Origin: Escherichia virus TH42
Strand: one strand, 5' to 3'
Sequence record: MT446413.1
DNA: 64,000 bases
Part shown: positions 1,193 to 63,986 of the stretch, one piece after another
Position numbering within the stretch: position 1 is the first letter of the stretch
Layout of the letters: each line of letters starts with the position of its first letter
Notes under the pieces: model-generated
Told to the model about the DNA's origin: nothing
The model's database searches: none
What the model saw: the letters and a program-made list of their open reading frames with translations, nothing else
Made by a program: the position numbers and the translations under genes

Positions 1193-1726
1193 TTATACAC
1201 CTTTAGATGCAACTACACCACTACTACCGTTATAACGACCCTTCACTGCATAGGAATCATCACCAGCGTGAGAGTGTTCAAACATAACCATTTGACCAAC
1301 ACGCATCCCAGCACGAACTCGTAAGCTGTGGTTGTGAGTAACATTATGGAACTCAAAGGTCAGCTTACTGTTGTTAAACCCTGCATCAGCCCAACCAGCA
1401 TGGAGGTGGTTCAAGCCACAGCGAGCCATTGAGGAGCGGAGTACAAACAAACTTGAGATATTATCTGGAAGGTTAAACTCTTCCATTGAGTGAGCTAAGA
1501 AGAATTGTCCCGGAGTGATGACAATACCATCTTCAGGGATTTTCACTTCTTTCCACTTGAGATTTTCTTTAGCATCAATGTCAACAATGCCGTCAGCCTG
1601 TTCTTCAACAAGGATAGTATCACCAATACGGATATCCACGCTAGCAGCGTTAACATATTTATGCTCCGCATCTAAAAAGCCATTATCAATAACGTTGTGT
1701 AGTTCTTGAGAACCTAAAAGACTCAT
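1193..1726 (-). CDS. dcd: dCTP deaminase
   Basis: 177 aa; dCTP deaminase/dUTPase-fold motifs (SVDIRIGDT, FVLRSSMARCGLNH, GWADAGF). Confidence 0.8.
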   Translation of the reverse strand: MSLLGSQELHNVIDNGFLDAEHKYVNAASVDIRIGDTILVEEQADGIVDIDAKENLKWKEVKIPEDGIVITPGQFFLAHSMEEFNLPDNISSLFVLRSSMARCGLNHLHAGWADAGFNNSKLTFEFHNVTHNHSLRVRAGMRVGQMVMFEHSHAGDDSYAVKGRYNGSSGVVASKGV

Positions 1727-3159
1727 GAGTTTCTGTTTCCTTGTACAGATGATGCCAAATTGTTAATCATGTTACGAGCTGTTTCACGAGTCAGCGTAAC
1801 ACCTGCTAAGTTACTATCAAGTTCACCAACTAATTCACGAGCTGTTGCTCGGAGTTCTGCACCAAGTGCAGTGTTAGAATGAGCCAGACCATTACGACGA
1901 CCAACAGGTCGAGCGTCGTTAGCTAAAGATGCAAAGCCAGTACGAGCAGCTTCACGAGCCGCTATAGCTGCTACCCGATCTTCTGTAGGGGTTGGCAAAT
2001 CACCAACTTCTACACGTTCTATATCACTAGAACGTAGACCCTGAACAACAGAGCTAACTGTTTCCCATGAACGACGGGAACGCTGCAAATCACCCATAGA
2101 TGGAGAAGAAGCAGGTCGAACAGTTACTCCACCTGTATCATGAGTGACGTGCCATGTACGAGTACCCATTCCAGAAGAACGGGCACTACCAAAACTACCA
2201 GTGAAAGTATCACGAGGTGCCTCTGTAGCAGGTGCTGCGAATCTTGTCTGTTGCCAAGAGTCACGTCTGTCAGTTCCCGGAGTCCAAGGCTGCGTAATTG
2301 CTTCAACACCAATAGTGGTTAATTCACTAGACCAATCTGTCTGTAGGTTAACCTCTTCATCCAGATAGTTACGACCCGCTTCCTGAGGAATATTTAATAC
2401 AGTTTCCATCATCTTCAAGGTGTAGTGGCGACGTTGATTCTGATACAAGTTTACACCAGCCATAGGCCCAACTAAATCACTGATCAGATGAACTTCTGGT
2501 TCACCAAAAGCTCCCATTGCAAGGTGCATATACTCAGTAGAACTGCTGTAAACTGCAACTGTTGCTTCAGGCCACTTTTTGTGGACATACTTCATGTCAC
2601 GACTTGTCACCACAGGGATATCATTAGTATATGCCATTGCAAACATACCTTCGTTCGACACATACATATCATCGAGAGTCATAAACCCTTGACAAATCAT
2701 AGGGAAGCGACCTCTCAGAGTATCCATATCCAGAGGGAGGTTAATCATCATCTGAATCTTCACTTCGTCAATCTCCACTTCCAAAATCTCTTGGAAAGTG
2801 AAAAGTGCTTCAGCGTAATTTGTCCCACTAACAGGCTGAACTAGGCGAGATGTAGTTTGAAGCCCTTTACTCTCTGTCCAAGACAAGAAGTTGTCAAGGA
2901 ACAGTGCAGCATTACCCACGTTAGCAGGGCTGTTTTCCTGACGAGTGTTCCAACGAAATCCTCCTTGAACTAGGAAGATATCAACGTCATTCGGAGTTCG
3001 ATTTTGGAAGAACGTATCACGGATAGCACCACCCGCAATAACAGGATAGATACCATCAGGGACTACGTTATCTCTGATCAAATTACGAATCAGGTCAAGC
3101 CCTACACTGAGGGCTTCTCCTTCTTGAAGGTTTAATTCAGACAATGGAATCTTAATCAT
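1723..3159 (-). CDS. nucleotidyltransferase (CCA-adding / poly(A) polymerase head-domain family) with low-complexity C-terminal tail
   Basis: 478 aa; N-terminal VIAGGAIRDTFF...NDVDIF matches the Pol-beta NTase motif GGAVRD-x-LLG...DxD; last ~150 aa Arg/Ser/Ala-rich low complexity. Confidence 0.5.
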   Translation of the reverse strand: MIKIPLSELNLQEGEALSVGLDLIRNLIRDNVVPDGIYPVIAGGAIRDTFFQNRTPNDVDIFLVQGGFRWNTRQENSPANVGNAALFLDNFLSWTESKGLQTTSRLVQPVSGTNYAEALFTFQEILEVEIDEVKIQMMINLPLDMDTLRGRFPMICQGFMTLDDMYVSNEGMFAMAYTNDIPVVTSRDMKYVHKKWPEATVAVYSSSTEYMHLAMGAFGEPEVHLISDLVGPMAGVNLYQNQRRHYTLKMMETVLNIPQEAGRNYLDEEVNLQTDWSSELTTIGVEAITQPWTPGTDRRDSWQQTRFAAPATEAPRDTFTGSFGSARSSGMGTRTWHVTHDTGGVTVRPASSPSMGDLQRSRRSWETVSSVVQGLRSSDIERVEVGDLPTPTEDRVAAIAAREAARTGFASLANDARPVGRRNGLAHSNTALGAELRATARELVGELDSNLAGVTLTRETARNMINNLASSVQGNRNS

Positions 3160-6645: not shown

Positions 6646-6665
6646 TACAAATTCCTTTTGTTTAA

Positions 6666-7913: not shown

Positions 7914-7915
7914 TT

Positions 7916-8146: not shown

Positions 8147-8351
8147 CTTTAATCCCCTTCAATTTCACATAGTCAGCCAACACGTTGTTGATAACGGTTG
8201 GGAAAGGGATTTCAACTGGAGAGTTAACCAGTCCCCCAATACCTTCTTGCATCCATTTCTGAATAGCTCGAAGGTTATCACATCCTGTGCTTGTCATTGG
8301 GATACGTCGAGTGGTTACAACGTTATCCAACATCAATTTACGAACTTCCAT
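8118..8351 (-). CDS. hypothetical protein
   Basis: 77 aa ORF in operon context. Confidence 0.35.
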   Translation of the reverse strand: MEVRKLMLDNVVTTRRIPMTSTGCDNLRAIQKWMQEGIGGLVNSPVEIPFPTVINNVLADYVKLKGIKVEPHVKQGS

Positions 8352-8362
8352 AACTTCACCTC

Positions 8363-10366: not shown

Positions 10367-10473
10367 GTTGCCCCCAGCTAATACGATACCACAAATTTTC
10401 TAATCCACCTGAAGGGTAAACCCTTTCATCTAATTAACCTTTAAATGCGCCCTTTATCAGAGCGCCCATTGTG

Positions 10474-11574
10474 TTACAGCAGTCGTTCTAATTGCATTTC
10501 CAGATGGTCTGGAATGTAACCAGTGACGTTATCATCACTGCTACCTGATTCACGCATCAGAGCAAACATGTGACGAATTTCACGAACCGTTGCGATTCGA
10601 GTGTTTTCAATCTGAGGGGTGTAATAGGTCAGGATCTCTTCGTAAACAGAGTTGGCATTACCACGTACATATCCCAAGAAACCGTAGAAGTCGCCCATAT
10701 CACGCAAGTTGATAAGGATTTCACCATCAGGTCCAGTCTGCTGTACACGAACACGACCAACCAGAGTAACAGAATGTTCACGACAGAACAGAATATCACG
10801 AGCCAAACGATAACCGCCAGTCAGGTCATCATCATTAGGTGTGTAGTCCAGAGGCAGATACTGAATCATAGGAGCGAAGCGTAGCTCATTCAGTTTCTCA
10901 ACATATGCTTCATTATCCAAATCTGCATACTCAACAGCCAGTTTCTTGAGAACCAAGAAGCGGTTGACCAGATTAAGGAGTTGGCTTTTCTTCCACTTTG
11001 GCTCTGAGATACGAAATTCAACAGAACCAAACTGAGCCAGAGGTAATAGGTTAAGGGAGGTGTACTTGTCCCAGCTATTAACAAGAGTATTGAAGAAGGC
11101 TTCACCATCTCGGTTGAACGCTGCGGAAGCATTCATTACCTGTGCTTGAACAACAGCAAAGGCAGGACAGAAGTTGCTACGATAGCGATGGTATCCAGAA
11201 CATTTGAACATCATCTTTTCATAGAACGTCCATCCAAGAATTACTTTCTTCAGGATGTTACTATCAGCGTCACGCATATCCATATGAACGTGAGTAGAGC
11301 AGCGCCAAGTCCCTTCAGCTTCAGAGTCTTGTACTGCTTCACTCAGATTGTTAATAGCACTAAGCAATTCTACACCGTTGTAAGGCCGTGCACAAACCAT
11401 CTCACAGCCATCACGAAGTGAACCATCTTCAGTACAAACCCAAAGGTCTGCATCAATTTCAGAGGTTCCTTCAACTTCCAGCTCGATGCCAATACCACAC
11501 TGAAAAGCGATGCTTGGGTGCGGCTCAGCCAGACGAGCATTACGGTATCCAAAAACTTGTGCTACGGTTGTCAT
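10474..11574 (-). CDS. amidoligase (Amidoligase_2-type, glutamine-synthetase-like fold)
   Basis: 366 aa; GIGIELEVEG, EDGSLRDGCEMV, CSTHVHMD motifs. Confidence 0.7.
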   Translation of the reverse strand: MTTVAQVFGYRNARLAEPHPSIAFQCGIGIELEVEGTSEIDADLWVCTEDGSLRDGCEMVCARPYNGVELLSAINNLSEAVQDSEAEGTWRCSTHVHMDMRDADSNILKKVILGWTFYEKMMFKCSGYHRYRSNFCPAFAVVQAQVMNASAAFNRDGEAFFNTLVNSWDKYTSLNLLPLAQFGSVEFRISEPKWKKSQLLNLVNRFLVLKKLAVEYADLDNEAYVEKLNELRFAPMIQYLPLDYTPNDDDLTGGYRLARDILFCREHSVTLVGRVRVQQTGPDGEILINLRDMGDFYGFLGYVRGNANSVYEEILTYYTPQIENTRIATVREIRHMFALMRESGSSDDNVTGYIPDHLEMQLERLL

Positions 11575-12197
11575 AACGTTTCCACCAACTCTACATTATA
11601 TGATGACAGATCTGAAGAAATATGCTTGAACTTCTCCAGAAGATTTAAAGATTGACGACCATTGTCGCCGTAACCAGCAGAAAGATCAACTTGACCTACA
11701 AGTGCCCCTTTGTAATAAACTTTACCATCGACAGGGTTGATGTAGATGAAGCGAGTAACCAGACCTTCGAAGTCAGGATTAAACAGATTATACACCAGCT
11801 CTCCCGGAATCGAACGACCCATTGAAGGAGGTGCACCACGTAATTTGTTCCCCATCAGACCCTTAGCTCGCTGACGAACAGGGTTGATATGAGTCCAGCT
11901 TACCATGTTGTTGCCGTGTTGTAAGTATCCCACATCTGGAGATTCCAGAATAAGGCTTTGATCAAACACAGGAATGCCCTGAACAACCTGTCGTTCAAAC
12001 TGCCCTTCGGCGTTCTTAGACCAGCGTTCAACTTCAAAAGTTAAGGCCATTTCTGCTTCGTGAGAGAAGTCATCTTCTCCAAAGCGGTTTGCTTGGTTCA
12101 CGTTGAGTACATAAAGAGGTAAATTAATCCCTCGTTCTGCACGTTGGGCAATCCATGTTCCGCAATAATAATGCTGAAAATCTCTTAACAGGCTCAC
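11571..12197 (-). CDS. hypothetical protein (amidoligase cluster member)
   Basis: 208 aa; start overlaps upstream stop; no motif recognised. Confidence 0.4.
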   Translation of the reverse strand: MSLLRDFQHYYCGTWIAQRAERGINLPLYVLNVNQANRFGEDDFSHEAEMALTFEVERWSKNAEGQFERQVVQGIPVFDQSLILESPDVGYLQHGNNMVSWTHINPVRQRAKGLMGNKLRGAPPSMGRSIPGELVYNLFNPDFEGLVTRFIYINPVDGKVYYKGALVGQVDLSAGYGDNGRQSLNLLEKFKHISSDLSSYNVELVETL

Positions 12198-12206
12198 GAT
12201 AACACC

Positions 12207-13013
12207 TTAGATAATCTGGAGTTTAGAGGAGAATTTATCCGCTTCTTTAACATCGTTGCTATTGATGATGTTGTGAAGCTTTTCGATAGGCAGACGGGAG
12301 TGCAGAGACATGAGAATTTCCATATCACAGCCCTGAATAACCTTATCAACTTGATCGTAAACAAACTTACGAGTGGACTGTTCACCAATCCAGAAGTTCG
12401 ACAGAGAACGATATTCAATACCGTAATCTTTATAACGAATAGCAGATGCCTTGCCGTAAAGTTCTTTACGACGAGTGTCCTTATCCATAATTACTGCTGG
12501 AAGTGACAGGAAGTAATCACACAGAACACCCAGCATCATCTGAGTCTGTCGAGTTACTTCCAAAGACCCTGCAACACCGAGGTGTACGTGACCGCCAGCA
12601 GTACGCAGACCTTTGTCTGTCGCTACCGGAGATGGGTTTTTCTGACCAGTGAAGGCGTTGAAATCAGGAGTACAGCCAAACACAAAGGCTGATGGATGGA
12701 ATGATTGCAGCTCTTCAGAAGTGTACACATGAGAACTAATCCCAAGTGCAGCTTCCATACCACGTTCATTAAGAACTTTGTTGGTCAGATCAATACCACG
12801 CTGGATGTTATCATCAAACGCTTCGAACCCTTTCTGTGGGTTAATATCGAATTCAGCCAGAACGTTGTCTTCTTGAAGACGAACATCAGGGGCCAGATCG
12901 ATTTTGTTATCTTTAGAACAGCCCAGCTTACCAGCCACAGAGGTGATAACACCAGAAGCAGTACGAACAAACATTTCAGGGTCAGAACCAATAAGGAAAG
13001 CACGCTTAGTCAT
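12207..13013 (-). CDS. putative COOH-NH2 ligase-type amidoligase
   Basis: Start at internal ATG with GGAG SD (track ORF begins at GTG 13058); MTKRAFLIGSDPEMFV and GGHVHLG resemble GCS2/COOH-NH2 ligase family; tentative. Confidence 0.45.
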   Translation of the reverse strand: MTKRAFLIGSDPEMFVRTASGVITSVAGKLGCSKDNKIDLAPDVRLQEDNVLAEFDINPQKGFEAFDDNIQRGIDLTNKVLNERGMEAALGISSHVYTSEELQSFHPSAFVFGCTPDFNAFTGQKNPSPVATDKGLRTAGGHVHLGVAGSLEVTRQTQMMLGVLCDYFLSLPAVIMDKDTRRKELYGKASAIRYKDYGIEYRSLSNFWIGEQSTRKFVYDQVDKVIQGCDMEILMSLHSRLPIEKLHNIINSNDVKEADKFSSKLQII

Positions 13014-13956
13014 TGTAATACTCCACAAGTTCATCAAAAAGGGAAACAACACGGGCACCAGCTTCTTCTGGTGTCATTGAGGAAGGTACTGCTTGCATCA
13101 AGCGTTCAATAAAACTGCGAACAGTAATTCTGTCCATACGCTGATCTAATACTTCACGTTTATGGCCTGCACACATTGACCAGAGACGCAACCACTCACT
13201 CATACTTTCGTAATAGTCAGGGTCTTGGTCACGACGACGAGCCATACGGCGGAGAACTCCGTCATTATGGTTTCGTACATAACCATCTCTGTTATCGTCA
13301 ATACCAAATACATTCTGAACCCATACGTTTTCAGAAAATTCATCAGTTGAACAGACCAGTGGCAAGAATGCGATTGCACTCATATCGCCAGTAAAATAGG
13401 TCGCTGCTGATTCATCATCAGTGTCTACATCATTTGAATAAGACCAACGACCAAAGAAGTTACGACTCAAACCGGCTAAACGTAAAGCTAAGCTGATTCG
13501 TTGTCGCTTGAGTAACTCTTCCTTGTCTTGAACGCCTTCCTGAAGGAACTCCATTCCCATAAAATCTCCATCCAGATAACTCCGGAGGGTCATTAATCCA
13601 GTAAACACCTTGTCTGCTGGGTGGTCTCGAAGGTTCACGGCAACTGAGTTCACCGAAGTGACAGAGAACATGTTTTTATAGCAAGACATTGAGTTAAAAA
13701 TGTCTGTTGCTTCAACTAAAGCTCTTTCGATATCTTTAGCTGGTACGCCATAAAAATTGTGAGGCCAGAAGTTAATAACTCCAATTTCTGAAGTTCTATC
13801 ACGAAGGCTTGAGAGATTGATACTGTCGCCATTAATGTCTGTAACAGAATACATATGCTGACAGTTGAAAGTACCAAAACAAGCTCGCCCTCTGAACACT
13901 GACTCACCAAAGTCCCCTGATGGTGTTACCGGAGCAGTCGATGCGGAGATTGACAT
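13006..13956 (-). CDS. hypothetical protein (amidoligase cluster member)
   Basis: 316 aa ORF, co-oriented, overlaps neighbours by a few nt. Confidence 0.45.
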   Translation of the reverse strand: MSISASTAPVTPSGDFGESVFRGRACFGTFNCQHMYSVTDINGDSINLSSLRDRTSEIGVINFWPHNFYGVPAKDIERALVEATDIFNSMSCYKNMFSVTSVNSVAVNLRDHPADKVFTGLMTLRSYLDGDFMGMEFLQEGVQDKEELLKRQRISLALRLAGLSRNFFGRWSYSNDVDTDDESAATYFTGDMSAIAFLPLVCSTDEFSENVWVQNVFGIDDNRDGYVRNHNDGVLRRMARRRDQDPDYYESMSEWLRLWSMCAGHKREVLDQRMDRITVRSFIERLMQAVPSSMTPEEAGARVVSLFDELVEYYND

Positions 13957-13964
13957 ATTCGCCT

Positions 13965-15182
13965 CTATTTATTGAAGAATAATTTTTCCAAAATGTTTTC
14001 CCACTCTTCTGAGGGACGTACTGTATAATTACTACCTGTCAGTCCATTGGACATACTACTGATAATGTTATACATGTTGTAGCTTCGAGCTGAAGCTGTT
14101 TCATTGTTCCAGTTATAACCGAACACAATTTTAGCAAAAGATGTTTCAGATTCAGCCACCTCTCGGATAAATTCAACCAAGAGTGACTTTTCTGTGATGA
14201 TTGGTCGGGTATCTTCCGACAGATGGCAATATTGAGGCAAAAGGATTGGCAAGAACATCGAATTGTTCACTCGACAATCACGAACACCTTCACTGCGATA
14301 GATCAGACTGGAGAAGTCTTCATCACGCAGGTGGCCTTCACCTTCAGTGTATTCACACTGTCGCCATTTGGTCTGGCGAGGCTCAACCATTGTACTACCA
14401 ACACCCACTGTATACAGAGATGCTTGGAAGATACAGGAATCGTAATCATTCCCTGTTAAAGCAACACGTTCGTTACCGAACACATCCACTGAAGAGTTGA
14501 TCAGTCGGCTGAATGCAAGAGAGGCTAAAGGAGACCAGCCCTTCTTATACATCTTGTTCAACATTTCATACACAGCAGATTTTTCATCATCTGTATAGAA
14601 TGTGCGATTCAACATCAGATAGAACAGAGCACGATCAGCGGGACAGCCATCAGTACAAACACCCATGAACCCTACTTCATGCCATACCAGACATGAGTCA
14701 AGGTCTTTATCCATGAATGCTGCAAAGGTTTCCATAACAACACGATCAGTGATATCAGGACGGTTGTTTTCTTCTGCCCATGTTTCCACATGAGAAGGAG
14801 GACGAGGGTCTTCATTTTCTAACCCTTCACGGAAATACTGAGTAGCGATATATTCAGTATCACCATAACATCTTACACCGTGAGCTGGAAGATGTGTTCC
14901 GGAGTTCCAGATATACTTGATTTCAGACATAGGCAACATATTCTCAAGAACGTTCTCTTCAGCAGTGCCTTGACGAACCATCATATTTCCACTCCACACC
15001 TTGATGCGGATATTCCAGCCGAAATTACTATCGTATGTATTATAGTAATCAGGATCACCATCTTCATCTTCGTCATAATCACCACCCTGATAGTAACCTG
15101 CTTTCAGGAAACCATAACAAGGGGGCCAGACGGTTACAACGTCTTCTGATTCTTTCCAGCTTTGAAGTGTTACAGGGAACAT
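13965..15182 (-). CDS. hypothetical protein (amidoligase cluster member), acidic N-terminal tract
   Basis: 405 aa ORF; DYDEDEDGDPDYY tract; no motif recognised. Confidence 0.45.
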   Translation of the reverse strand: MFPVTLQSWKESEDVVTVWPPCYGFLKAGYYQGGDYDEDEDGDPDYYNTYDSNFGWNIRIKVWSGNMMVRQGTAEENVLENMLPMSEIKYIWNSGTHLPAHGVRCYGDTEYIATQYFREGLENEDPRPPSHVETWAEENNRPDITDRVVMETFAAFMDKDLDSCLVWHEVGFMGVCTDGCPADRALFYLMLNRTFYTDDEKSAVYEMLNKMYKKGWSPLASLAFSRLINSSVDVFGNERVALTGNDYDSCIFQASLYTVGVGSTMVEPRQTKWRQCEYTEGEGHLRDEDFSSLIYRSEGVRDCRVNNSMFLPILLPQYCHLSEDTRPIITEKSLLVEFIREVAESETSFAKIVFGYNWNNETASARSYNMYNIISSMSNGLTGSNYTVRPSEEWENILEKLFFNK

Positions 15183-15193
15183 CTTTTACCTCT

Positions 15194-15556
15194 TTACTCT
15201 GCTACCAAAAGGCTCAGAGATTTACGAATGTAGGCAATGCTACGGAAGTTTCGATAGTTCTCTTGGAAGCGCATCTTTTCAAATTCTGCTTCCTGAAGTT
15301 CTACCTCTGCTGCATTGTATCCTGCCACAGCCAAACTCACCACATCCTGAGGTAAGGTATTACGACGACGAATAAGATATTTATTCGCCTTTAGTTTGCT
15401 TTGTGCACGAGCCATTTTGGCCTTTGCCGCCTTAATGCCATGAGCAATCCAGAGCAGTTGCTGCTCCAAATCATTCTCGTCCATGCCACCCAAATCATTT
15501 GCTACTTTATGCAGCGTAGACAGGTTCACATGGCCTTTGATGGGGCGTAGGTTCAT
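15194..15556 (-). CDS. hypothetical protein
   Basis: 120 aa ORF; start ATG overlaps stop of upstream small ORF (ATGA). Confidence 0.4.
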   Translation of the reverse strand: MNLRPIKGHVNLSTLHKVANDLGGMDENDLEQQLLWIAHGIKAAKAKMARAQSKLKANKYLIRRRNTLPQDVVSLAVAGYNAAEVELQEAEFEKMRFQENYRNFRSIAYIRKSLSLLVAE

Positions 15557-16471: not shown

Positions 16472-16885
16472 TTAAACAACGAATTGGAACGCTTCGTATC
16501 CAAACTTATAAGAGAAGTCATGCTTGAATTTCACTACACGACCACGGTCACGGAAAGATTTCAGACGAGTGATGAACCCAGCCATCGGCTCAAGGTCAAT
16601 AGGGCTACGAATCTTCATAGCTACAGAGTGCAGCTTGAAGCGCTTACCAGTGCTACAGGCCATCATCACATACTCCATACGAGTAGTCCAGATGTTGAGC
16701 ACCATGCTTGTTTTCTCCGCTGACCAACCAGTCTTACGGGCGATTTCCTTATGGATGTTAAGCTCCAAAGGAAGAGGGAATTGCTTGTTGAATGAAGCCG
16801 GATAAAGTTTGACCAGAAGATCAATGTTTTCTTTATACGTGAGGTAGGCCAATTTTTTGCTTACGTTGGGGAATTTCCCAGCCAT
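16472..16885 (-). CDS. ProQ/FinO-like RNA-binding protein
   Basis: 137 aa; KKLAYLTYKENIDLLVKLYPASFNKQFPLPLELNIHKEI...NIWTTRMEYV parallels the ProQ N-terminal domain (FP-CF, PLKIGI, YT-x2-W-x-Y). Confidence 0.5.
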   Translation of the reverse strand: MAGKFPNVSKKLAYLTYKENIDLLVKLYPASFNKQFPLPLELNIHKEIARKTGWSAEKTSMVLNIWTTRMEYVMMACSTGKRFKLHSVAMKIRSPIDLEPMAGFITRLKSFRDRGRVVKFKHDFSYKFGYEAFQFVV

Positions 16886-32325: not shown

Positions 32326-33867
32326 ATGTCATTAGATAAAGAAATATATGAAGCACTAACTGGAGACAAACTATCGGTAGAGGAGAAGAAGGCTCTGCTT
32401 GAAATGCTGAAGGATAGAGATCAATGGAGAAAGTATAATAGGATTCTTTCTTTTAAAGCATACCAGTTTCAGAAAGACTTTTATGCAGCGGGACTGAAGC
32501 ATCGCTTTAGATTCCTGTGTGCAGCTAACCGTGTTGGTAAATCTTACAGCGAGGCATACGAGTTTGCTTGTCATGTCACAGGTCGCTACCCAACTTGGTG
32601 GACAGGATATAGATTTAATCGACCCATATTGGCTTGGGCAGTAGGGATTACAGGGGACTCTACAAGAAAGGTATTGCAAAAGGAATTGTTTGGAACACCT
32701 ATCGGAAAGGATACAAACTTATTAGGGACGGGTGTTATTCCTCGTGATGCTATCGTCATTGACACGATAGAACGAGATGGAAACAAATTACAGATCGTAC
32801 AAATCAAGCACCAAAATGCTAGAGGCGAATTTGATGGGCTGAGTACGTTAGAGTTTCGTTCTACCCAACAAGGTGAACACACATTAATGGGTGCTACAGT
32901 GGATTACATTTGGCTGGATGAAGAAGATCCTTATGAAAGTATGGCAATCTTCTCTCAGTGCGTAACACGTACACTTACTACTAAAGGTTTAGTTACGATT
33001 ACAGCTACACCAGAGAACGGATTAACAGAGCTGGTGGACAAGTTTATGAAAGGTGAAGGGGACGAGAACACAGGTTCTCTATATTTCCAAAATGCTTCTT
33101 GGTGGGATGCTCATGTGGACCTAGGTGGTCACATCTCTGACCAAGATATAAAGGATATGACAGAAGGTATTCCGGCATGGCAGCTAGAGATGCGCTCTAA
33201 AGGTATGCCTCTGTTGGGTTCAGGTTTGATTTATGATGTATCTGATGATTCAATTAAGTGTGACCCGTTTGAAATTCCTGATACGTGGAAACGTGTTTGT
33301 GCCATTGATATTGGTATTGATCACCCGACGGCAGCTGTATGGTCAGCTTATGATGCTAACACCGATACAATCTACATTTATGACTGCTATAAAGAAAGTG
33401 GCTTTACTCCAGTGTATCATGCACCAGCTATTAATGGTCGTGGTCAGTGGATTCCAGTCATTCTTCCTCACGATGCTGATAACATTGAGAAGGGAAGTGG
33501 TGCTTCTGTAGCACAATTCTATAAAAATGCAGGAGTAAACGTACAAAATGATACCTTCCATAACAAGATCGGAATGGATGGTAAGAAGAACTTCTTTGTG
33601 GAGCCAGGAATTACTGATATTCGTGAGCGTATGATGTCAGGTCGATTCAAAGTCTTTAATACTACCGCATGTGCTAAGCTCTTTGAAGAGAAAGCACGTT
33701 ACCATCGAAAAGTTGGTAAGATTATTAAAGAACATGATGACCTTATGGACGCAATGCGATATTCAGCTTGTTCTGTTACACACAGAGGTCGGTCTAAGCA
33801 TGACGCTAGCTATGGTAGCTCGTCGCTTTATCAAGAAAATATTAACAGATGGAATCAAAGCTACTAA
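32326..33867 (+). CDS. terminase large subunit
   Basis: 513 aa; Walker A-like CAANRVGKS, ATPase plus C-terminal nuclease-type acidic residues; precedes portal. Confidence 0.75.
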   Translation: MSLDKEIYEALTGDKLSVEEKKALLEMLKDRDQWRKYNRILSFKAYQFQKDFYAAGLKHRFRFLCAANRVGKSYSEAYEFACHVTGRYPTWWTGYRFNRPILAWAVGITGDSTRKVLQKELFGTPIGKDTNLLGTGVIPRDAIVIDTIERDGNKLQIVQIKHQNARGEFDGLSTLEFRSTQQGEHTLMGATVDYIWLDEEDPYESMAIFSQCVTRTLTTKGLVTITATPENGLTELVDKFMKGEGDENTGSLYFQNASWWDAHVDLGGHISDQDIKDMTEGIPAWQLEMRSKGMPLLGSGLIYDVSDDSIKCDPFEIPDTWKRVCAIDIGIDHPTAAVWSAYDANTDTIYIYDCYKESGFTPVYHAPAINGRGQWIPVILPHDADNIEKGSGASVAQFYKNAGVNVQNDTFHNKIGMDGKKNFFVEPGITDIRERMMSGRFKVFNTTACAKLFEEKARYHRKVGKIIKEHDDLMDAMRYSACSVTHRGRSKHDASYGSSSLYQENINRWNQSY

Positions 33868-40317: not shown

Positions 40318-42951
40318 ATGATCGTTTATAACAACCAAGAACCTACTACAGTAAATAATGTAGGCCAATTTGGTGCAACAGAAGGCTCTATCGGAGCCTA
40401 TAAACAAGCAGCTGAGTATGCTGCTGATTCTAAATATTGGGCACTTTTAGCTGAGTCTAAGTTTGGTACAGTTGATGATCTTATTGCTGAAGTAGAGAAA
40501 CTTTATAAGCAAGGTATTCTATTACAGCAAGATATTGAAGATCTGAAACAGGACTTTAAAGATCAAGATGCTCGACTGATGCAACTGATTGCACAGACTA
40601 ACGCAGCTGTTGCTAATGCTAACAACTCTATTGCTTTGATTAACCAAAAACTGATTGAAGTCGATCAGCAACTTGATATCCTGTTGGCTATGAAAGTTAC
40701 AGTGACCACTCTTCCTCCGGGTTCTGAAGCTACTGGTTCTTTCAATAACCAAACTGGTGAAATCAAGCTAGGTATTCCTGAAGGTGAGCCGGGTCGTGAT
40801 GGTTCTGTAACCGACTTAAACACTGCCCCAACGGGGGTTCCAGAAGCAGGGGATATTGGTTTTTATGTTGACCCTGATGACAACAAAGTGTATAAAACCA
40901 GCCTCAGTAATATCGCTAACTTAATCCCTTCTGTTCGTTCTATCAAAGTTAATGATGGTCCAGAACAAACTGGAGATGTAGCCCTTACTCTTGATAAGAA
41001 CGTTGTTGGCCTAGGTAACGTTCTGAACGTTGCTCAATATAGTCGTCAAGAGATTAATGACAAATTCGATAAACCTATTAAAATATATCAAACTAAAGCT
41101 GATGCTGATGCAAATGCTCAATATCGTCAAACAGGCGAATCTGTTATGGTTTGGGAAAACACTCAATATGTTTTCTACACCGTTTCAGCTAATAAAACAC
41201 TAATTCCAGCTAAAACCGAAGGTCGTATTATTACAGTTAACTCACGATCTCCTGACTCATCTGGCAACATTGATATTACTATTCCTACAGGGAACCCTTC
41301 TTTGTATCTCGGTGAGATGGTTATGTTCCCATATGACCCAGCTAAGAATATCTCTTACCCCGGTGTACTACCTGCTGATGGTCGCTTGGTTTCTAAGGAA
41401 AGTGCTTTAGATTTAGGTCCATCTTTGGTCAGTGGCCAATTACCAGTAGTTAGTGAAACTGAATGGCAGTCCGGTGCTAAGCAGTATTTCTCTTGGGGTA
41501 AACTGGCTGATGGTTTTACTGATGCAGACTCTAGCAACTTCATCAGCATCCGACTTCCAGATTGGACTGGTGGGGAAGCTATTCGTGCTCCAGACGCTGA
41601 CAAAGATTCTCAATATGACGGGTCTGTTCAATCTCAGAAACCTTATGTGGTTACTGTTAACAATCAAGCTCCTGATGAAGCTACAGGTAATGTTACTATT
41701 TCTAGAACTACTCTAGGAGCTGCTTCTTCTGGTGCAAACTCAGACATAACCTCTATTACAGGACTTACGACTGCTCTCTCTGTTTCTCAGGGTGGTACAG
41801 GTGGTAAGACAGCAACCGAAGCCCGTGGAAATTTAGGGTTGGATAAGATTGATCAACAGGAATCTGAAACTAAGATTTTATCCCCTGACAAAAGTACTTA
41901 CATGTTTGTAGATAATGCCGGCTGGGGTTGTTATAATAACACAACAGGAACAGTTGCACTTACTGTAGAACGTGGAGGCACTGGAGCTACTGATGCTGCT
42001 ATCGCTAGAACAAATTTAGGCCTTGGCTCAATTTCTACCTTAAGCAACGTCCCTGTTGCTAGTGGTGGTACAGGTGCAACTAATGCAGCTGGAGCAAGAA
42101 CTAATCTTGGATTAGGGAACATCTCTACACTAAATAACGTCCCTGTTGCTAGTGGTGGTACAGGTGCAACTAATGCAGCTGGAGCAAGAACTAATCTTGG
42201 ATTAGGCAACTCAGCCACAATGAACACTGGAACAAATAGTGATAACGTTCTTAAGGTAGGTGATTTTGGTATTGGGAGACCTGATGGTGCTTTAGTTTTT
42301 GATACAACGTCCCAAGACGCCCTTCTTGCATCACTTGGCAACTACGGTCTTAGTGTCTTTAGAAATAACCAACAAATTCCAGCTCCTTGGGACATATGGA
42401 ATTATTCCTCAAACCTTTTCTTTAAGGCAGGTGATACGTACAGTATGATAAGTATCCCATTTGAGAGTGCTGGCAAGATAAAAGTTTTTGGTGGTGCTGA
42501 GGGGCAGGGATGGAAAACTTCGAGGACGGTATACGATACCGTAAATACAACTGTTGACGTCAATGGTTTTATTAAAGCAGCGTCACCAATAGTAAAAGTG
42601 TTTCATGATGGAAGTTTTGAAACAAATGAACAATCAGATGGAGTTAGTGTTAAAAGAATTTCAGCTGGAGTGTATTTAGTTTCAGGATGCCTAGGTCTCA
42701 ATTCAGATGCAGGGTGGGGTGGGGTTAATGGTGGTTTTGAGATACCGTGTGATATTAACAAACAAGCGAAAGTATGGCTTGATTACGAAGTGAAAGAAGA
42801 TGGTTCTATTCTGGTAAAAACTTACCACAGAACACATCCTACTTCTCCCGTCTTTGCTCGTAATGAGATTGAAGGATATTCTGATGGGGACCCTATTGAC
42901 ATACCGAAAGATACTTTCATCTCTGTTCGTATTGAAATGCCATCTAAGTAA
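40318..42951 (+). CDS. tail fibre protein
   Basis: 877 aa; four copies of the phage tail-fibre repeat GGTG-x-T-x-A-x-AR-x-NLGL, two of them near-identical at DNA level. Confidence 0.6.
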   Translation: MIVYNNQEPTTVNNVGQFGATEGSIGAYKQAAEYAADSKYWALLAESKFGTVDDLIAEVEKLYKQGILLQQDIEDLKQDFKDQDARLMQLIAQTNAAVANANNSIALINQKLIEVDQQLDILLAMKVTVTTLPPGSEATGSFNNQTGEIKLGIPEGEPGRDGSVTDLNTAPTGVPEAGDIGFYVDPDDNKVYKTSLSNIANLIPSVRSIKVNDGPEQTGDVALTLDKNVVGLGNVLNVAQYSRQEINDKFDKPIKIYQTKADADANAQYRQTGESVMVWENTQYVFYTVSANKTLIPAKTEGRIITVNSRSPDSSGNIDITIPTGNPSLYLGEMVMFPYDPAKNISYPGVLPADGRLVSKESALDLGPSLVSGQLPVVSETEWQSGAKQYFSWGKLADGFTDADSSNFISIRLPDWTGGEAIRAPDADKDSQYDGSVQSQKPYVVTVNNQAPDEATGNVTISRTTLGAASSGANSDITSITGLTTALSVSQGGTGGKTATEARGNLGLDKIDQQESETKILSPDKSTYMFVDNAGWGCYNNTTGTVALTVERGGTGATDAAIARTNLGLGSISTLSNVPVASGGTGATNAAGARTNLGLGNISTLNNVPVASGGTGATNAAGARTNLGLGNSATMNTGTNSDNVLKVGDFGIGRPDGALVFDTTSQDALLASLGNYGLSVFRNNQQIPAPWDIWNYSSNLFFKAGDTYSMISIPFESAGKIKVFGGAEGQGWKTSRTVYDTVNTTVDVNGFIKAASPIVKVFHDGSFETNEQSDGVSVKRISAGVYLVSGCLGLNSDAGWGGVNGGFEIPCDINKQAKVWLDYEVKEDGSILVKTYHRTHPTSPVFARNEIEGYSDGDPIDIPKDTFISVRIEMPSK
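42050..42210 (+). repeat. near-identical tandem DNA repeat inside tail fibre gene
   Basis: cgtccctgttgctagtggtggtacaggtgcaactaatgcagctggagcaagaactaatcttggattagg occurs twice ~90 nt apart. Confidence 0.5.
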
Positions 42952-42996
42952 AACTAAGAATGCCCTCTCTTCAGAGGGCTTTATGGAGGATTATAA

Positions 42997-45174
42997 ATGT
43001 CTAGAGAGTTAATGCCCAAGTCTGGGATAATGATGCCTCATGTTGTAGTATCACGAGATGCTGCTGTTGTCGGTGTATCTACTGTTGATGGTGCCGCTGG
43101 CGCTATCGACCTAACTAATAAATATTTACAGAAGACTGCAGCTGAAAACACCTATATGACAAAAACTGAAGGTGCTACTAAGGTTTATGTTTCAGACTCT
43201 ATTGCCCCTATTATGGAAGGTGCTCTGTTTAAATCTGATCCTTTTGTAGCTAATGATGTACCATTCCGTGCTGCTGGGGCTAATGGTGTAGAGTCTGTCG
43301 ATATGATTAAAGTTACACCAGAGAACACTATCAAAATCGGTAGCTACGCTTCTTCTGTTCAGGGTGTAGAAGTTCACACTGCTGGTCGTCTTCAGGTTGT
43401 GGATTTGAATGACGGTGGTGTAGAAACTAAATATCCTGTCTACTCAAAACGGTATCGTCCTGAGATTGATGAACTTCCTTTTGCAGCGATCGGTTCATAT
43501 GTCAAGGATTCTAAAGGACGCACTATTGGTGTAACTCGTACTGGTATCAACTCTGATATAACTCAGATGACTCAGAAAGTAACCTTCACACAACCAGTAA
43601 CTGTTGCAGATGCTGTAGGAGATTATGATGCAGTTACCTACCGTCAACTTAAGAATCAGGGTGGTGGTTCTGGTGGTCCTACCATGAGTGGTATCTCCAA
43701 CTTTGGTATTGGTGATTTCCATCTTCGTGATAGTCGTGCTTTCATTCCTGCATTCGAAGTTGTATCCGATGGTCAGCTACTGAATCGTGCTGATTACCCT
43801 GATCTTTGGGCTTATGCCCAGCTGTTAACTCCTATCACAGATGCTGCTTGGTTGGCTGATGCACAGCAACGAGGTAAATATTCAACTGGTGATGGTTCTA
43901 CTACCTTCCGTGTTCCTGATAGGAATGGTGTTCAGAGTGGCTCTCTGAAAGAACTCTTTGCTCGTGGTGATGGTGGTAATAGTAGTAATAATGGAATGGC
44001 TTATGATGCGGCACTTCCTAACATCGTAGGTTACACTGCCCACACTCTTTTAACTGCTGCGAGTAATCAAGGACAGGTTGCTACCGATGGAGCTTTTACC
44101 TCTACAACCTCAACCTCAGGTGTTTGGCCTTTGTCTGGCGGCGGCGGTCTTTATACCAACATTCAGCTTAACGCTAACAACAGTGATGCTACTTATGGTC
44201 GCTACGGAATCACAGCGAATGCTATCCCTCGTAACTTCATTGGTGTTTGGACTATCCGTGCTCATGGTGGGTTTGTAGCAGCTAATACTTCTTGGGCTGT
44301 TATTAACAGTGATACCTCTCGACCTTCAGCTGGTTCAAAAGCGACTGGTGGTTCTATCTTATCTCAGTATAAAATAGGCTCTGATGTAGAAGCTGAGACT
44401 TACTTGAAAACTGATGCTTATATCAACGGAACTTACTACGGAGTTATTGGTGTTATTAACAAAACCAAAGGAGTGACTTCTGAGCTAACCTTTGGTGATG
44501 ATGGCATCCTAAACTCTAACAAATACAGAGCAAGGCAAGTCTCGGGTTTGAGTTGGAATAATACAGGAGTTGAGAAGGGTACTTATGCAATTGAAGATGT
44601 TAACATAGGAACTAACTATAACTTCAACAGTATAATCAGTGCTGCACAATCTTCTAATTCTGGTTACAGAACTTCTACTCATATCGGTCAAATTCATAAT
44701 GACGGTGGCTCTTTTGCTCAATCCTGCTGGCATGTATCAGGAGATGAAACTAACCAATATGGTGTTCGTCTTGCCATCCAACCTAACTATGAAGATATTT
44801 ATTACTACTTCTGGGCACCAGATGTTTCTCGAACCTACACTCTTCAGAAGAATGCTGTCTCTGATGAACGTCTTAAGCGTGACATTTACGATCTTGATGC
44901 GTCTAGGCCTATTGAAATTTTGAAAGGTTTGACTTTCCGTTCCTTTGTCTATAAGGATGATGAAAAGCAGAGAACTCGTCGTGGTGTTATTGCACAGGAG
45001 GCAGAGAAGGTAGAACCTCTGTATGTTAAGACGATTAACTTCTATGACCCTGATGGTAGCAAGAAAGATCAGAAACAGCTGGATACAACTCCTATGCTTC
45101 TTGATACAATGGCGGTAGTTCAAGACCTCCTAAAACGTGTTGAAGAGTTAGAAGCTAAACTGGCTGCTAAGTAA
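42997..45174 (+). CDS. tail fibre/spike with C-terminal intramolecular chaperone (peptidase S74-type) domain
   Basis: 725 aa; C-terminus SDERLKRDIYDL...GVIAQEAEKVEPLYV...coiled coil; terminator follows. Confidence 0.7.
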   Translation: MSRELMPKSGIMMPHVVVSRDAAVVGVSTVDGAAGAIDLTNKYLQKTAAENTYMTKTEGATKVYVSDSIAPIMEGALFKSDPFVANDVPFRAAGANGVESVDMIKVTPENTIKIGSYASSVQGVEVHTAGRLQVVDLNDGGVETKYPVYSKRYRPEIDELPFAAIGSYVKDSKGRTIGVTRTGINSDITQMTQKVTFTQPVTVADAVGDYDAVTYRQLKNQGGGSGGPTMSGISNFGIGDFHLRDSRAFIPAFEVVSDGQLLNRADYPDLWAYAQLLTPITDAAWLADAQQRGKYSTGDGSTTFRVPDRNGVQSGSLKELFARGDGGNSSNNGMAYDAALPNIVGYTAHTLLTAASNQGQVATDGAFTSTTSTSGVWPLSGGGGLYTNIQLNANNSDATYGRYGITANAIPRNFIGVWTIRAHGGFVAANTSWAVINSDTSRPSAGSKATGGSILSQYKIGSDVEAETYLKTDAYINGTYYGVIGVINKTKGVTSELTFGDDGILNSNKYRARQVSGLSWNNTGVEKGTYAIEDVNIGTNYNFNSIISAAQSSNSGYRTSTHIGQIHNDGGSFAQSCWHVSGDETNQYGVRLAIQPNYEDIYYYFWAPDVSRTYTLQKNAVSDERLKRDIYDLDASRPIEILKGLTFRSFVYKDDEKQRTRRGVIAQEAEKVEPLYVKTINFYDPDGSKKDQKQLDTTPMLLDTMAVVQDLLKRVEELEAKLAAK

Positions 45175-61070: not shown

Positions 61071-61307
61071 CTAGATTAAATCATAATACTTAATAATATC
61101 AGAGAGCTTAAACTCTCGAATGTCATTCTTGTCATTGTCCCAAGCGGTCATTATCCAACAAGGTTTGCCCCCATTATGATAACGGGAAGAAGCAACTGAG
61201 GTTCGTATAGGAACAACGGAGCGGTCTGCAATTTCACCTCTCCAATTACGATAGCTAAAGCGAAGAACTTGTTTCGTAGATACTTGATCATAGGTGTTTT
61301 CCTTGTT
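61071..61307 (-). CDS. hypothetical protein
   Basis: Start at internal ATG (MNKENTYDQ...) to avoid overlap with HNH gene; track ORF 61071..61430. Confidence 0.35.
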   Translation of the reverse strand, partial: NKENTYDQVSTKQVLRFSYRNWRGEIADRSVVPIRTSVASSRYHNGGKPCWIMTAWDNDKNDIREFKLSDIIKYYDLI

Positions 61308-61332
61308 CATAGATTCAAAGACTTCTCTTTCT

Positions 61333-61737
61333 TCAGGAGTCTCTAGATTTTTTAAATTCTCGTCTTGCATCATTCTCTTCCTTAGTTTTAATCTTATGAC
61401 AAGGCTCTTTACACAAGACTTGAAAGCCATCTACTTCAACCAAAGCTCTCTCGATGATTTCATCCCAAGAAGCTTCATGGTCCACTGGAACAATAGGGTT
61501 GATATGGTCAACAGCTACCTCTTTGAGAGGAGAGTCATTACCGCACATGGCACACTCATAGTGCATTGCCAGTTTACCAGTTTTGGGGTTGATCTTACGC
61601 TCTGTCTGAGCCTCTTTAAGAGAGTCAAACATAGGCTTCCACTTTCTAGTGAGAGAACGAATCCCTGACTTGATGAAGGAATTATATCGTGCTTCAGTCC
61701 ACTGACCAGAGCATCTAGTTTTCTCAGCTTTCGCCAT
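61333..61737 (-). CDS. HNH endonuclease
   Basis: Start at internal ATG (MAKAEKTR...); CAMCG ... VDHINPIV ... CKEPCH zinc-finger HNH motif. Confidence 0.6.
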   Translation of the reverse strand: MAKAEKTRCSGQWTEARYNSFIKSGIRSLTRKWKPMFDSLKEAQTERKINPKTGKLAMHYECAMCGNDSPLKEVAVDHINPIVPVDHEASWDEIIERALVEVDGFQVLCKEPCHKIKTKEENDARREFKKSRDS

Positions 61738-61915
61738 AACCCACATCCATGTCAGCATCTTCCCAAATACGTTTGTTAATACGATGTGATTCTTTTTCAG
61801 CACGAGGGATACGTCCTGTACGACGATCAAATGCTTGGTGTTTAATCTTCTGGTCTTTACGAGACTCACGATTAGAGGAATTTTCATCATACGAACGATA
61901 GTCAAATTTACCCAT
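61724..61915 (-). CDS. hypothetical protein
   Basis: 63 aa charged ORF between exonuclease and HNH genes. Confidence 0.3.
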   Translation of the reverse strand: MGKFDYRSYDENSSNRESRKDQKIKHQAFDRRTGRIPRAEKESHRINKRIWEDADMDVGYGES

Positions 61916-61925
61916 TATAATATCC

Positions 61926-62771
61926 TTATTCCCAAGATTTATCTAACCACGACCAATCAAAGAGGTCGCCTTCAGCTTGTCCAACGAAGAGCAATCGAGC
62001 ATTTTCTAACATCTTAGCTTCTGCTTCTTCCTCGAACCTCTTATAGTATTCCATTCGTATAATATGATAAAGAGTCCACTTATCGAATACCTTCTCAATA
62101 AGTTTGATAGCAGCTTTGCTACCAATACCCTTACGACGCATAACTAAGTTACCGCCCCACATCATTTCAACTTTCTCACCACATCCGGGGATGTTATCTG
62201 TACTGTCTCCAATCAACATCTGATAGAAGAAGTTCTGCCATGCTACTTCCTCTGATACGTAATGAGGGGGTACTTCTTTCTGTCGTTCACCGCAAGCCCA
62301 GCGGTAATGCCATCCGGGAGTGATTAACAAATCCTTATCACGAGTACAGATGATTGTGTTCTTTTCTATACGCTGTCGTTCAGCGAGTGCATCATCTGCT
62401 TCTCTACCAAACACCTCAACGTACTGATAATGTTCTTTGATGTAATCACTAACGTTCTGCCAGTGATGTGGTCTTTCTCCCGGAGGTCGGTTAGCTTTGT
62501 AACCTTGTTGCTGAGCAATATCAAATCGGAAGTTACCACCTTCACTAAAATAGAAGACAGTTCTTTCACAACCAGCTCTTGAGATGATTACATCAATCTT
62601 ATGTTGGAGACGTTCAATCAAGAATCCATAATCAACTGGAACACGACCTGTGTCTAGGAAAGGATGCTCTTGTGTAAGAGCACCAACTTCATACCTAAGA
62701 ACATCTGCATCCACAATTGCTACTTCAGGATAGATTACATCAGGCATAGAGATCTCTCCGTGTCTGTGCAA
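61926..62771 (-). CDS. 5'-3' exonuclease (T7 gene 6-like, FEN family)
   Basis: 281 aa; IVDADVL, YKANR, FGREADD, CTRDKDLL, GDSTDNIPGCG motifs. Confidence 0.8.
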   Translation of the reverse strand: MHRHGEISMPDVIYPEVAIVDADVLRYEVGALTQEHPFLDTGRVPVDYGFLIERLQHKIDVIISRAGCERTVFYFSEGGNFRFDIAQQQGYKANRPPGERPHHWQNVSDYIKEHYQYVEVFGREADDALAERQRIEKNTIICTRDKDLLITPGWHYRWACGERQKEVPPHYVSEEVAWQNFFYQMLIGDSTDNIPGCGEKVEMMWGGNLVMRRKGIGSKAAIKLIEKVFDKWTLYHIIRMEYYKRFEEEAEAKMLENARLLFVGQAEGDLFDWSWLDKSWE

Positions 62772-63336
62772 TACTGTATTCTAAATACTCCACCGCCTCT
62801 TCTACAGAACAATCATTAAAGAGAAGGTAGGTTGAAAGGTTCGCGCCTTCAATATAGGAACGAGAGTCTCCTTCAAAAGTACAGCCATCACGATGAATCT
62901 GAATTACTCGAACATGGAAATGTTTTTCCAGTTCTTCAACTTCTGCTTTAAATCCACCATCAGAGAATACAATAACATCATTCTGTGTTGGGATGCGTTG
63001 TTGAATACTGCTAACAGCAAGCTTACCCATGCAGGTGTCACCAAACATTGGTTTCAGGTAGTTCTCACTAGTCGCAATCATTAAATCTCGAACTGTCTTA
63101 CCGCCCCATTCAGGACGGCTATATTCTTTCCACTCACGGTCGTTGTATAGCTCCATGAACTCATAAAGAGGAAGTCCTAATGCAGCAGCAGCCACTCGAT
63201 ACATAGGCTCCTTAAAAGCCTTTACATGCGGTCTAAACTCAGTGTTACCGACGGTCTTCTCTAACCAAGCATTAGCGATTGTATCTTTACCACAACCCGG
63301 TGGTCCATTCAGAATTACTACTAACGGTTTACTCAT
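62740..63336 (-). CDS. P-loop nucleotide kinase (dNMP kinase-like)
   Basis: 198 aa; Walker A GPPGCGKDT near N-terminus, size and pattern of phage dNMP kinases. Confidence 0.6.
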   Translation of the reverse strand: MSKPLVVILNGPPGCGKDTIANAWLEKTVGNTEFRPHVKAFKEPMYRVAAAALGLPLYEFMELYNDREWKEYSRPEWGGKTVRDLMIATSENYLKPMFGDTCMGKLAVSSIQQRIPTQNDVIVFSDGGFKAEVEELEKHFHVRVIQIHRDGCTFEGDSRSYIEGANLSTYLLFNDCSVEEAVEYLEYSIAQTRRDLYA

Positions 63337-63986
63337 TATTGAATCATCCCTTGAAGATCTTCTTTATCAAAGTGCTTCTCTACTACAGCTTCATACAGAT
63401 CACGATTCTCTGCATAACGGCGATAGAAGGTTCCGTGTGAAATTCCTAACTGCTGCTGAATATGATCATGAGGAATTCCAAGGAAGAGCATAGAGAACAT
63501 GCTTGCCATTTTCTTGGTATCCATAATATCACTTAAGTCTTGGAAGAAGAAAAAGATTCTAGATTCCAAGAAGGGGTCTCCAGTAGAGTCATGCTTATCC
63601 ATCGCAATCTCTAAAGGACTTTCCCATGAGTTCATCTCAGGAGGTCTAAACATATCAGCCTCTGGAATAGAGTAGATACGTCGATCTCCAACTGTCTGAC
63701 GGTTAGAACGAATAGACCAGATGATATTCTTAACACGATAAGTCATGTGTTCAATATCTTTTTCATCAGTGAGCAGAAGTTCTTCTTGCTTTGCAAACAC
63801 AAAACGCCAAGCGTTCAGTAACACTTCCTGAGCAACATCCTCTGCTTCGTGATAATCTTTAATGTCATACATGAAATAGCGATGCACAACTTTCCAGTTC
63901 TCTCGATAGAATTCATCGAAGGTTGGATAATATTTAATAGGAATGCCATGAATACGATAGCGTGTGGGTGTTGTCTTCTTCTTCAT
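63336..63986 (-). CDS. ECF-like sigma factor
   Basis: 216 aa; region-2-like [18 protein letters not shown] and C-terminal [16 protein letters not shown]. Confidence 0.55.

Follow-up and report, generated by a model that had tools for sequence, protein, structure and literature searches.

A P-loop kinase of Escherichia virus TH42 related to T4 gp1 and T5 Dnk is probably an accessory dNMP kinase and occurs independently of the amidoligase gene cluster

The 64,000-nucleotide stretch of Escherichia virus TH42 DNA analyzed here (record MT446413.1; the window) belongs to a Kuravirus, i.e., a phiEco32-like coliphage, and encodes a P-loop protein that raises the question of whether it acts on free nucleotides or on modified DNA. 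An earlier note on this DNA had described an open reading frame (ORF) of ~200 amino acids with the Walker A motif GPPGCGKDT, without giving its strand, and had offered two readings, a canonical deoxynucleoside monophosphate (dNMP) kinase or a modified-nucleotide kinase tied to a cluster of amidoligase genes in the same window. The ORF was confirmed as a 198-amino-acid coding sequence on the minus strand (62740..63336) with an ATG start at 63336, a TGA stop at 62740-62742, and the Walker A motif at residues 11-19 (63280..63306, minus strand). As the protein matches PHROG 139, "deoxynucleoside monophosphate kinase" (E 6e-41), and has 118 database homologs with identities down to 28% and tblastn matches in 1436 phage records, the ORF is a conserved gene and no chance reading frame. 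The 3.1 kb around the gene show 97.9% identity to Escherichia virus TH34 and 90-96% identity to further Gordonclarkvirinae, among them ECBP2 and Bas88; this group comprises the C3 podoviruses of the phiEco32 type with genomes of ~77 kb. We consider it very probable that the protein belongs to the T4 gp1/T5 Dnk lineage and is a soluble kinase of (deoxy)nucleoside monophosphates which serves the supply of deoxynucleoside triphosphates (dNTPs).

The relationship to gp1 and Dnk was observed at the level of the family and of the fold. T4 gp1 falls into PHROG 139, too (E 2e-65), and a family profile derived from a 64-sequence alignment with identities down to 28% gave 22.2 bits for T5 Dnk, whose gene was found at 21.8-22.5 kb of T5, and 19.7 bits for T4 gp1. 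BLASTP aligned T5 Dnk with the TH42 kinase over the N-terminal 54 residues (E 1e-4). Sequence searches against PDB chains were uninformative: whether the query was the single protein or the 64-sequence profile, they retrieved only AAA+ ATPases and adenylate kinases, matched at the P-loop. For this reason we turned to a comparison of folds. The AlphaFold2 model, calculated with the 64-sequence alignment, had a mean pLDDT of 95 and a pTM of 0.89, and Foldseek against the PDB placed T4 gp1 (1dek_A) at the top with a TMq of 0.70, the runner-up reaching 0.52. That the protein is some other P-loop phosphotransferase, such as a polynucleotide 5'-kinase acting in nucleic-acid repair or a small-molecule kinase resembling phosphomevalonate kinase, is a highly improbable explanation. 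The TH42 kinase is acidic, with an isoelectric point (pI) of 5.2, and the corresponding values are 5.06 for T4 gp1 and 4.8 for T5 Dnk. NCBIfam holds no model for any of the three proteins.

The catalytic residues were compared by a MAFFT alignment of the kinase with T4 gp1, T5 Dnk, and family members, using the residue roles published for gp1 (PMC10653934, Table 2), so that all correspondences given here are positions in a sequence alignment rather than in superposed coordinates. Residues G16, K17, R83, S90, E91, K95, P96, D126, G128, E132, D157, S158, and R159 were invariant in the 64 sequences, and D18 and T19 were conserved in at least 90% of them. In this alignment the ATP site of gp1 is kept at G16, K17, D18, T19, R149, N174, S177, and V178, with gp1 residues G13, K14, D15, T16, R197, N223, S226, and L227 corresponding to G16, K17, D18, T19, R149, N174, S177, and V178, respectively. 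Six of the nine residues of the gp1 dNMP site also have their counterparts, namely R67 (R68 in gp1), R83 (R132), M86 (M135), D126 (D175), E132 (E181), and D157 (D204). R132 of gp1 contacts the dNMP phosphate and M135 the sugar (PMC10653934); their counterparts R83 and M86 lie in the motif R83-D-L-M-I-A-T-S90-E91 (63064..63090, minus strand), recognized by alignment with T4 gp1 and T5 Dnk and by its invariant residues, of which S90-E91 is specific to the subfamily of the TH42 kinase. Alignment and invariance likewise delimit the motifs D126-G-G-F-K-A-E132 (62941..62961, minus strand), which is also present in the homolog of phage T1, and G156-D-S-R159 (62860..62871, minus strand). Judged from these aligned residues, the enzyme class appears clear.

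T4 gp1 (PDB 1DEK/1DEL; Pfam DNMK, PF21448) and the TH42 kinase are only 17-20% identical, and gp1, with 241 amino acids, contains a helical insertion of ~50 residues that the 198-residue kinase lacks. The activity of gp1 on dGMP, dTMP, and hydroxymethyl-dCMP (hm-dCMP) was assayed, whereas the kinase is known here from its sequence and its model. T5 Dnk, which acts on all four dNMPs, has the motif order GKDT, R-x-x-L/M, D-x-x-F-x-x-E in common with the kinase; it differs by its length of 250 amino acids, the helical insertion, the retained arginine of a DVR motif, and a match to Pfam DNMK. Much closer are the orthologs phiEco32 gp34 and Bas88_0025, the dNMP kinase of 4E8, and T1 CPTT1_016, which are 39-93% identical to the kinase and share the motifs GPPGxGKDT, FKxP, DR..KE, R..MI..SE..KP, DGGF..E, and GDSR. 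Among them, phiEco32 gp34 stands out by its 297 amino acids and an N-terminal extension of ~100 residues, and T1 by the lack of ThyX, deaminase, and amidoligase neighbors. The orthologs are annotated as dNMP kinases in Bas88 and 4E8 and as a "putative ATPase or dNMP kinase" in phiEco32, so that this annotation is already known and not new; the label reportedly dates back to the phiEco32 genome paper.

Several observations weigh against the assignment as a dNMP kinase of the gp1/Dnk lineage. The kinase gave no match to Pfam DNMK (PF21448) at E <= 0.1, and the controls T4 gp1 and T5 Dnk were recognized with E 3e-107 and E 4e-11, respectively; a match to this model was precomputed for one distant homolog of the kinase, P0110. 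As the kinase shares PHROG 139 and the fold with gp1 but does not reach Pfam DNMK, it appears by sequence to be a member of a sister subfamily in the gp1/Dnk lineage for which Pfam holds no separate model. One ATP-site residue is altered (R11 of gp1 to G14), as are three of the nine acceptor-site residues in the alignment, K37 to Y46, R177 to the invariant G128, and H206 to the invariant R159. Because of these differences at R11 and in the acceptor site, the range of substrates and acceptors does not seem readable from gp1. Literature searches turned up no assayed member of the subfamily. Finally, Gordonclarkvirinae were reported to be unusually resistant to restriction-modification (RM) systems for reasons that are not known (BASEL-II), and hence nucleotide modification may take place in this lineage.

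With the gp1-like enzyme as the favored explanation, we infer the substrates of the kinase and a role in salvage and dTTP supply as follows. The kinase would bind ATP at its P-loop and convert free dNMPs to deoxynucleoside diphosphates (dNDPs), which host Ndk would then turn into dNTPs, and it would most likely boost the dNTP supply for replication in a lytic phage whose DNA (42.6% G+C in the window) is AT-richer than that of its host. One source of dNMPs would be degraded host DNA; the recycling of such dNMPs is the classical role of T4 gp1 and T5 Dnk. A second source would be a pathway in which dCTP deaminase yields dUTP, host Dut (or a bifunctional deaminase) yields dUMP, and ThyX yields dTMP. 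The putative upstream partner in this pathway is the dCTP deaminase encoded at 1193..1726 (minus strand), which lies above the TIGR02274 equivalog cut-off and belongs to PHROG 1663; its Bas88 ortholog matches Pfam DCD with E 1e-34, and ThyX of TH34 lies above the TIGR02170 equivalog cut-off. The deaminase had been proposed earlier as a partner of the kinase in DNA hypermodification, and of this proposal the partnership is plausible in ordinary dTTP supply, while the hypermodification part did not hold up. In Pseudomonas putida, the gp1-like dNMP kinase PP_1964, which originates from a genomic island or mobile element, supplies the essential TMP kinase activity (PMC10653934), and by this analogy members of the gp1 lineage appear able to act as a cell's dTMP kinase. 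PP_1964, likened to the TH42 kinase by description, differs from it in that it retains R177 and H206 of gp1 (as R200 and H229, respectively).

The competing proposal centers on the amidoligase cluster at 5724-15556 of the window, which comprises genes for a GGACT protein, a RimK-type ATP-grasp protein, a class II glutamine amidotransferase (GATase), an Amidoligase_2 protein, a phiEco32-type COOH-NH2 ligase, and four proteins without assigned function. The two largest of these four, with 316 and 405 amino acids, had no Pfam-annotated homologs and contain a single invariant histidine each. According to this proposal, the kinase would be a DNA kinase for 5-hydroxymethyldeoxyuridine (5-hmdU), a 5-HMUDK, that primes replicated DNA for the attachment of products of the amidoligase/GATase cluster. 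It draws on metavirome contigs in which amidoligase and glutamine amidotransferase domains were seen alongside 5-HMUDK as well as aGPT-Pplase2 (PMC8989533), on the GATases and P-loop kinases that accompany ParB-dependent phage T-dioxygenases (PMC13229309), and on the RM resistance of Gordonclarkvirinae without a known cause.

We compared the kinase with the 5-HMUDKs M6 gp54, PhiW-14 gp37, and ViI gp243 (named in Lee et al. 2018, 2021). It showed no match to Pfam HMUDK_HMUD1 (PF18748) or HMUD2 (PF18747) at E <= 0.1, and the positive controls M6 gp54 and ViI gp243 matched PF18748 with E 8e-18 and PF18747 with E 6e-169, respectively. M6 gp54 and PhiW-14 gp37 belong to PHROG 800 and not to PHROG 139, and the family profile scored the three characterized 5-HMUDKs with 1.6, 1.1, and -1.4 bits. 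BLASTP and hhalign aligned the kinase with the 5-HMUDKs at the Walker A motif only, over 23-32 columns and with hhalign probabilities of 9% and 22%. The acidic character of the kinase is a further difference, as M6 gp54 and PhiW-14 gp37 are basic with pI values of 8.4-8.7. The known 5-hmdU DNA kinases (M6 gp54, PhiW-14 gp37, ViI gp67/gp243, and PaMx11 gp49) resemble the TH42 protein in being P-loop phosphotransferases of similar size from lytic phages, but their substrate is a base in duplex DNA, and beyond Walker A nothing is shared. Thus, the kinase groups with T4 gp1 and T5 Dnk and not with the 5-HMUDKs, contrary to the second reading of the earlier note.

Thymidine hypermodification requires a 5-hmdU source as well as an amino-acid:DNA transferase (AADT) (Lee et al. 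2018, 2021). As 5-hmU can also be provided after replication by T-dioxygenases of the TET/JBP type, in the company of which GATases, P-loop kinases, and AADTs are found (PMC13229309, 2026), both types of source were searched for. Mapping onto TH34 showed that ~12.9 kb of the genome is absent from the window, and the searches covered the window, the complete Bas88 genome, and the TH34 segment that fills this gap. The earlier statement that the window contains no thymidylate-synthase-like hydroxymethylase was borne out by tblastn and Pfam scans, and tblastn with M6 gp58 (ThyA-like) and T5 ThyA found nothing in Bas88 or the TH34 segment either. The counterpart of this segment in Bas88 encodes a DNA polymerase, PhoH, a ligase fragment, thioredoxin, and a "thymidylate synthase," and the latter is the flavin-dependent enzyme ThyX (Pfam Thy1, E 5e-43), which is 97% conserved in TH34. 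Close to the ThyX and thioredoxin genes of Bas88 lies Bas88_0058 (Bas88 44569-45135, outside the window), annotated as "DNA binding protein," whose 188-amino-acid product contains a ferritin-like domain (Pfam E 2e-7). Searches of the same three sequences by tblastn with M6 gp51, M6 gp55, ViI gp247, and pyridoxal phosphate (PLP)-dependent and radical S-adenosylmethionine (SAM) enzymes yielded nothing, and no AADT or aGPT-Pplase accompanying the kinase was found in them. Pfam scans of nearly every early or middle ORF of at least 150 amino acids, with proteins of unassigned function scanned at E <= 10, revealed no Thymidylat_synt, Tet_JBP, 2-oxoglutarate (2OG)-oxygenase, ParB, or aGPT-Pplase domain, a search that highly divergent oxygenases could escape. 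The single invariant histidine of the 316- and 405-residue cluster proteins does not fit a 2-His-1-carboxylate oxygenase. A comparison of these two proteins with the transferases M6 gp51 and gp55 by hhalign was discarded, as the control gp51 versus gp55 failed as well and the test thus had no power.

5-HMUDKs always occur alongside a 5-hmdU source and an AADT, and neither was found for this phage. The earlier note had itself named clear grouping with canonical dNMP kinases and the absence of a hydroxymethylase elsewhere in the genome as the outcome that would speak against its speculative DNA-kinase reading. Since the kinase groups with gp1 and Dnk and no hydroxymethylase was found, the link of a 5-hmdU DNA kinase to the amidoligase cluster is refuted by that standard, and we regard such a function as extremely improbable. 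What stands of the note's initial description is the dNMP-kinase-like P-loop protein, with its PHROG 139 membership, fold, and catalytic residues, and what falls is the modified-nucleotide kinase tied to the amidoligase cluster.

The distribution of the genes among phages also speaks against such a tie. The amidoligase was found in 286 phage records, among them 119 of Pseudomonas and 92 of Escherichia phages, and the GATase in 328. The 1436 records with the kinase family include 464 of Escherichia and 445 of Klebsiella phages, and Pseudomonas lies below the top-ten threshold of 24. The kinase subfamily is present without an amidoligase homolog in at least 370 Escherichia and at least 440 Klebsiella phage records. 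In phage LUZ24, the genes for ATP-grasp protein, GATase, amidoligase, and COOH-NH2 ligase adjoin those for primase and helicase, and no kinase, deaminase, or ThyX was found in its genome, the best six-frame score of the kinase profile being 3.8 bits. Conversely, T1 has the kinase and no amidoligase cluster; its CPTT1_016 is 39% identical to the TH42 kinase, contains all motifs of the subfamily, and is annotated as deoxynucleotide kinase, the HHpred probability to T4 DNK being 99%.

Even within Kuravirus the two are uncoupled. All nine genes of the cluster are present in the complete genome of Kuravirus LAMP (68,521 bp), together with those for the dCTP deaminase, the nucleotidyltransferase-like protein, ThyX, and the 5'-3' exonuclease/flap endonuclease (FEN), but no kinase was detected in it (best profile score, 3.3 bits). 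The place of the kinase gene between the sigma factor and FEN genes is taken by an unrelated ORF of 89 codons (gp33.1, LAMP 32352-32621). At its N-terminus (MNNPALVSMVGGSHYNP), gp33.1 is similar to the N-terminal extension found in some kinase homologs, among them P0017, where this extension (NPALTNMVGDSHYKP) immediately precedes the P-loop strand, a similarity suggesting that the kinase of LAMP may have been replaced by recombination at that N-terminal point. A small-genome Kuravirus devoid of the amidoligase cluster was sought as well, but HC-25922 (70 kb) and LAMP both still carry the cluster. These results show that the presence of the kinase in a phage does not depend on that of the amidoligase cluster, nor the presence of the cluster on that of the kinase. 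As the cluster is complete in LAMP, the kinase is dispensable for whatever the cluster does, and as a complete Kuravirus genome does without it, the kinase is an accessory gene. LAMP keeps ThyX in the absence of the kinase, so that host kinases must act there on what ThyX makes, an indication that its product is ordinary dTMP.

The RM resistance of Gordonclarkvirinae calls for a separate consideration of pre-replicative modification. The authors of BASEL-II regarded the dCTP deaminase and the adjacent nucleotidyltransferase as a possible DNA-modification module and suggested DNA containing deoxyuridine (dU-DNA). This suggestion is disfavored by the conservation of ThyX and is hard to reconcile with the finding that ThyX lies above the equivalog cut-off in every relative examined. 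The "nucleotidyltransferase" (1723..3159, minus strand; PHROG 12715) is a lineage-specific protein of 478 amino acids, and the stop codon of its gene overlaps the start of the dCTP deaminase gene. Searches of Pfam, NCBIfam, and PDB sequences gave no match to it, and a weak match to the nucleotidyltransferase family phrog_1614 covers residues 32-71 only. The window contains 12 EcoRI, 30 EcoRV, 6 EcoKI, and 111 EcoP1 sites, which are roughly the expected numbers, and since these sites are present, site loss does not explain resistance to the four enzymes. In contrast, only 2 CCWGG sites (Dcm/EcoRII) were found versus ~150 expected, and 601 6-bp palindromes versus 1066 expected, with GGATCC, GAGCTC, and CCCGGG missing from the window altogether. 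Such depletion suggests DNA that is exposed to type II enzymes and is more typical of this than of hypermodified DNA. A literature search retrieved neither restriction digests of Kuravirus DNA in vitro nor analyses of its nucleosides.

A gp1-type kinase specialized for a non-canonical dNMP, which would feed a pre-replicative base substitution behind the RM resistance, therefore has to be weighed against an ordinary dNMP kinase. T4 gp1 itself phosphorylates hm-dCMP (PMC10653934), and the acceptor pocket of the TH42 kinase differs from those of gp1 and Dnk, with DGGF replacing DTR/DVR and GDSR replacing DTH. The ThyX of the lineage (TH34 4424-5071; Bas88 42783-43433) has K-H-Q and a one-residue insertion where Thermotoga maritima ThyX and 6j61 have the R-H-R signature, the dCTP deaminase is coupled to the lineage-specific nucleotidyltransferase-like protein of 478 residues, and a loss of EcoRI, EcoRV, or EcoKI sites does not account for resistance to these enzymes. 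On the other hand, identical kinase motifs occur in T1 and in the Escherichia and Klebsiella phages without an amidoligase homolog, and LAMP, which lacks the kinase, keeps ThyX, deaminase, and nucleotidyltransferase, in line with ordinary dTMP as the ThyX product. Moreover, ThyX passes its equivalog cut-off and retains the other residues of its motifs, including those of the dUMP site (Q in ARQ; E, S, R, and Y in NExSxRY; AR..VLP; and R…HAQ), and the depletion of CCWGG and 6-bp palindromes suggests exposure to type II enzymes. We consider a specialized kinase of this kind improbable, with a slim chance of being correct. Slightly less probable is the more detailed version that the DGGF/GDSR subfamily has an acceptor specificity other than that of T4 gp1 and T5 Dnk and that in Gordonclarkvirinae its acceptor would be a non-canonical pyrimidine dNMP, provided, for example, by the KHQ-variant ThyX or by the nucleotidyltransferase-like protein for a pre-replicative modification behind the RM resistance.

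The operon context of the gene fits into a conserved arrangement. Upstream lies the gene for an extracytoplasmic function (ECF)-type RNA polymerase sigma factor (63336..63986, minus strand), the ortholog of phiEco32 gp36 (PHROG 1740, E 3e-44; Pfam Sigma70_r2), whose stop codon shares one nucleotide with the ATG of the kinase gene (TAATG). Downstream follows the FEN gene (61926..62747, minus strand; PHROG 107, E 6e-61; Pfam 5_3_exonuc_N), the likely ATG of which at 62747 results in an 8-nt overlap with the end of the kinase gene (ATGCCTGA); the Bas88 annotation contains the identical 8-nt overlap. The overlaps couple the kinase gene translationally to the sigma factor and FEN genes. The order sigma factor-kinase-FEN is preserved in Bas88, in phiEco32, and in a metagenomic relative with a 46%-identical kinase, and in Gordonclarkvirinae the kinase gene has a constant position between the other two.

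Two further regions of the window deserve mention. An ORF for a 119-amino-acid WYL-domain protein (61071..61430, minus strand; Pfam E 7e-6) overlaps with an HNH endonuclease ORF (61333..61905, minus strand) in the 3' part of the latter. Divergence of the window from TH34 and Bas88 is greatest in this stretch, which fits a turnover of homing endonucleases. In the early region, the product of an ORF of 137 codons (16472..16885, minus strand) contains an RNA-chaperone domain of the ProQ/FinO family, recognized at the gathering score (Pfam E 4.5e-6).

As a discovery the kinase itself matters little, and current annotation pipelines apply the same dNMP-kinase label to its orthologs. For the amidoligase/GATase cluster, the result means that the kinase ought not to be taken as support for DNA modification by the cluster along the 5-hmdU route. 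For the family, it draws attention to the DGGF/GDSR subfamily, which has no Pfam model, differs from gp1 at key acceptor-site residues, and is found in more than 1400 phage records.

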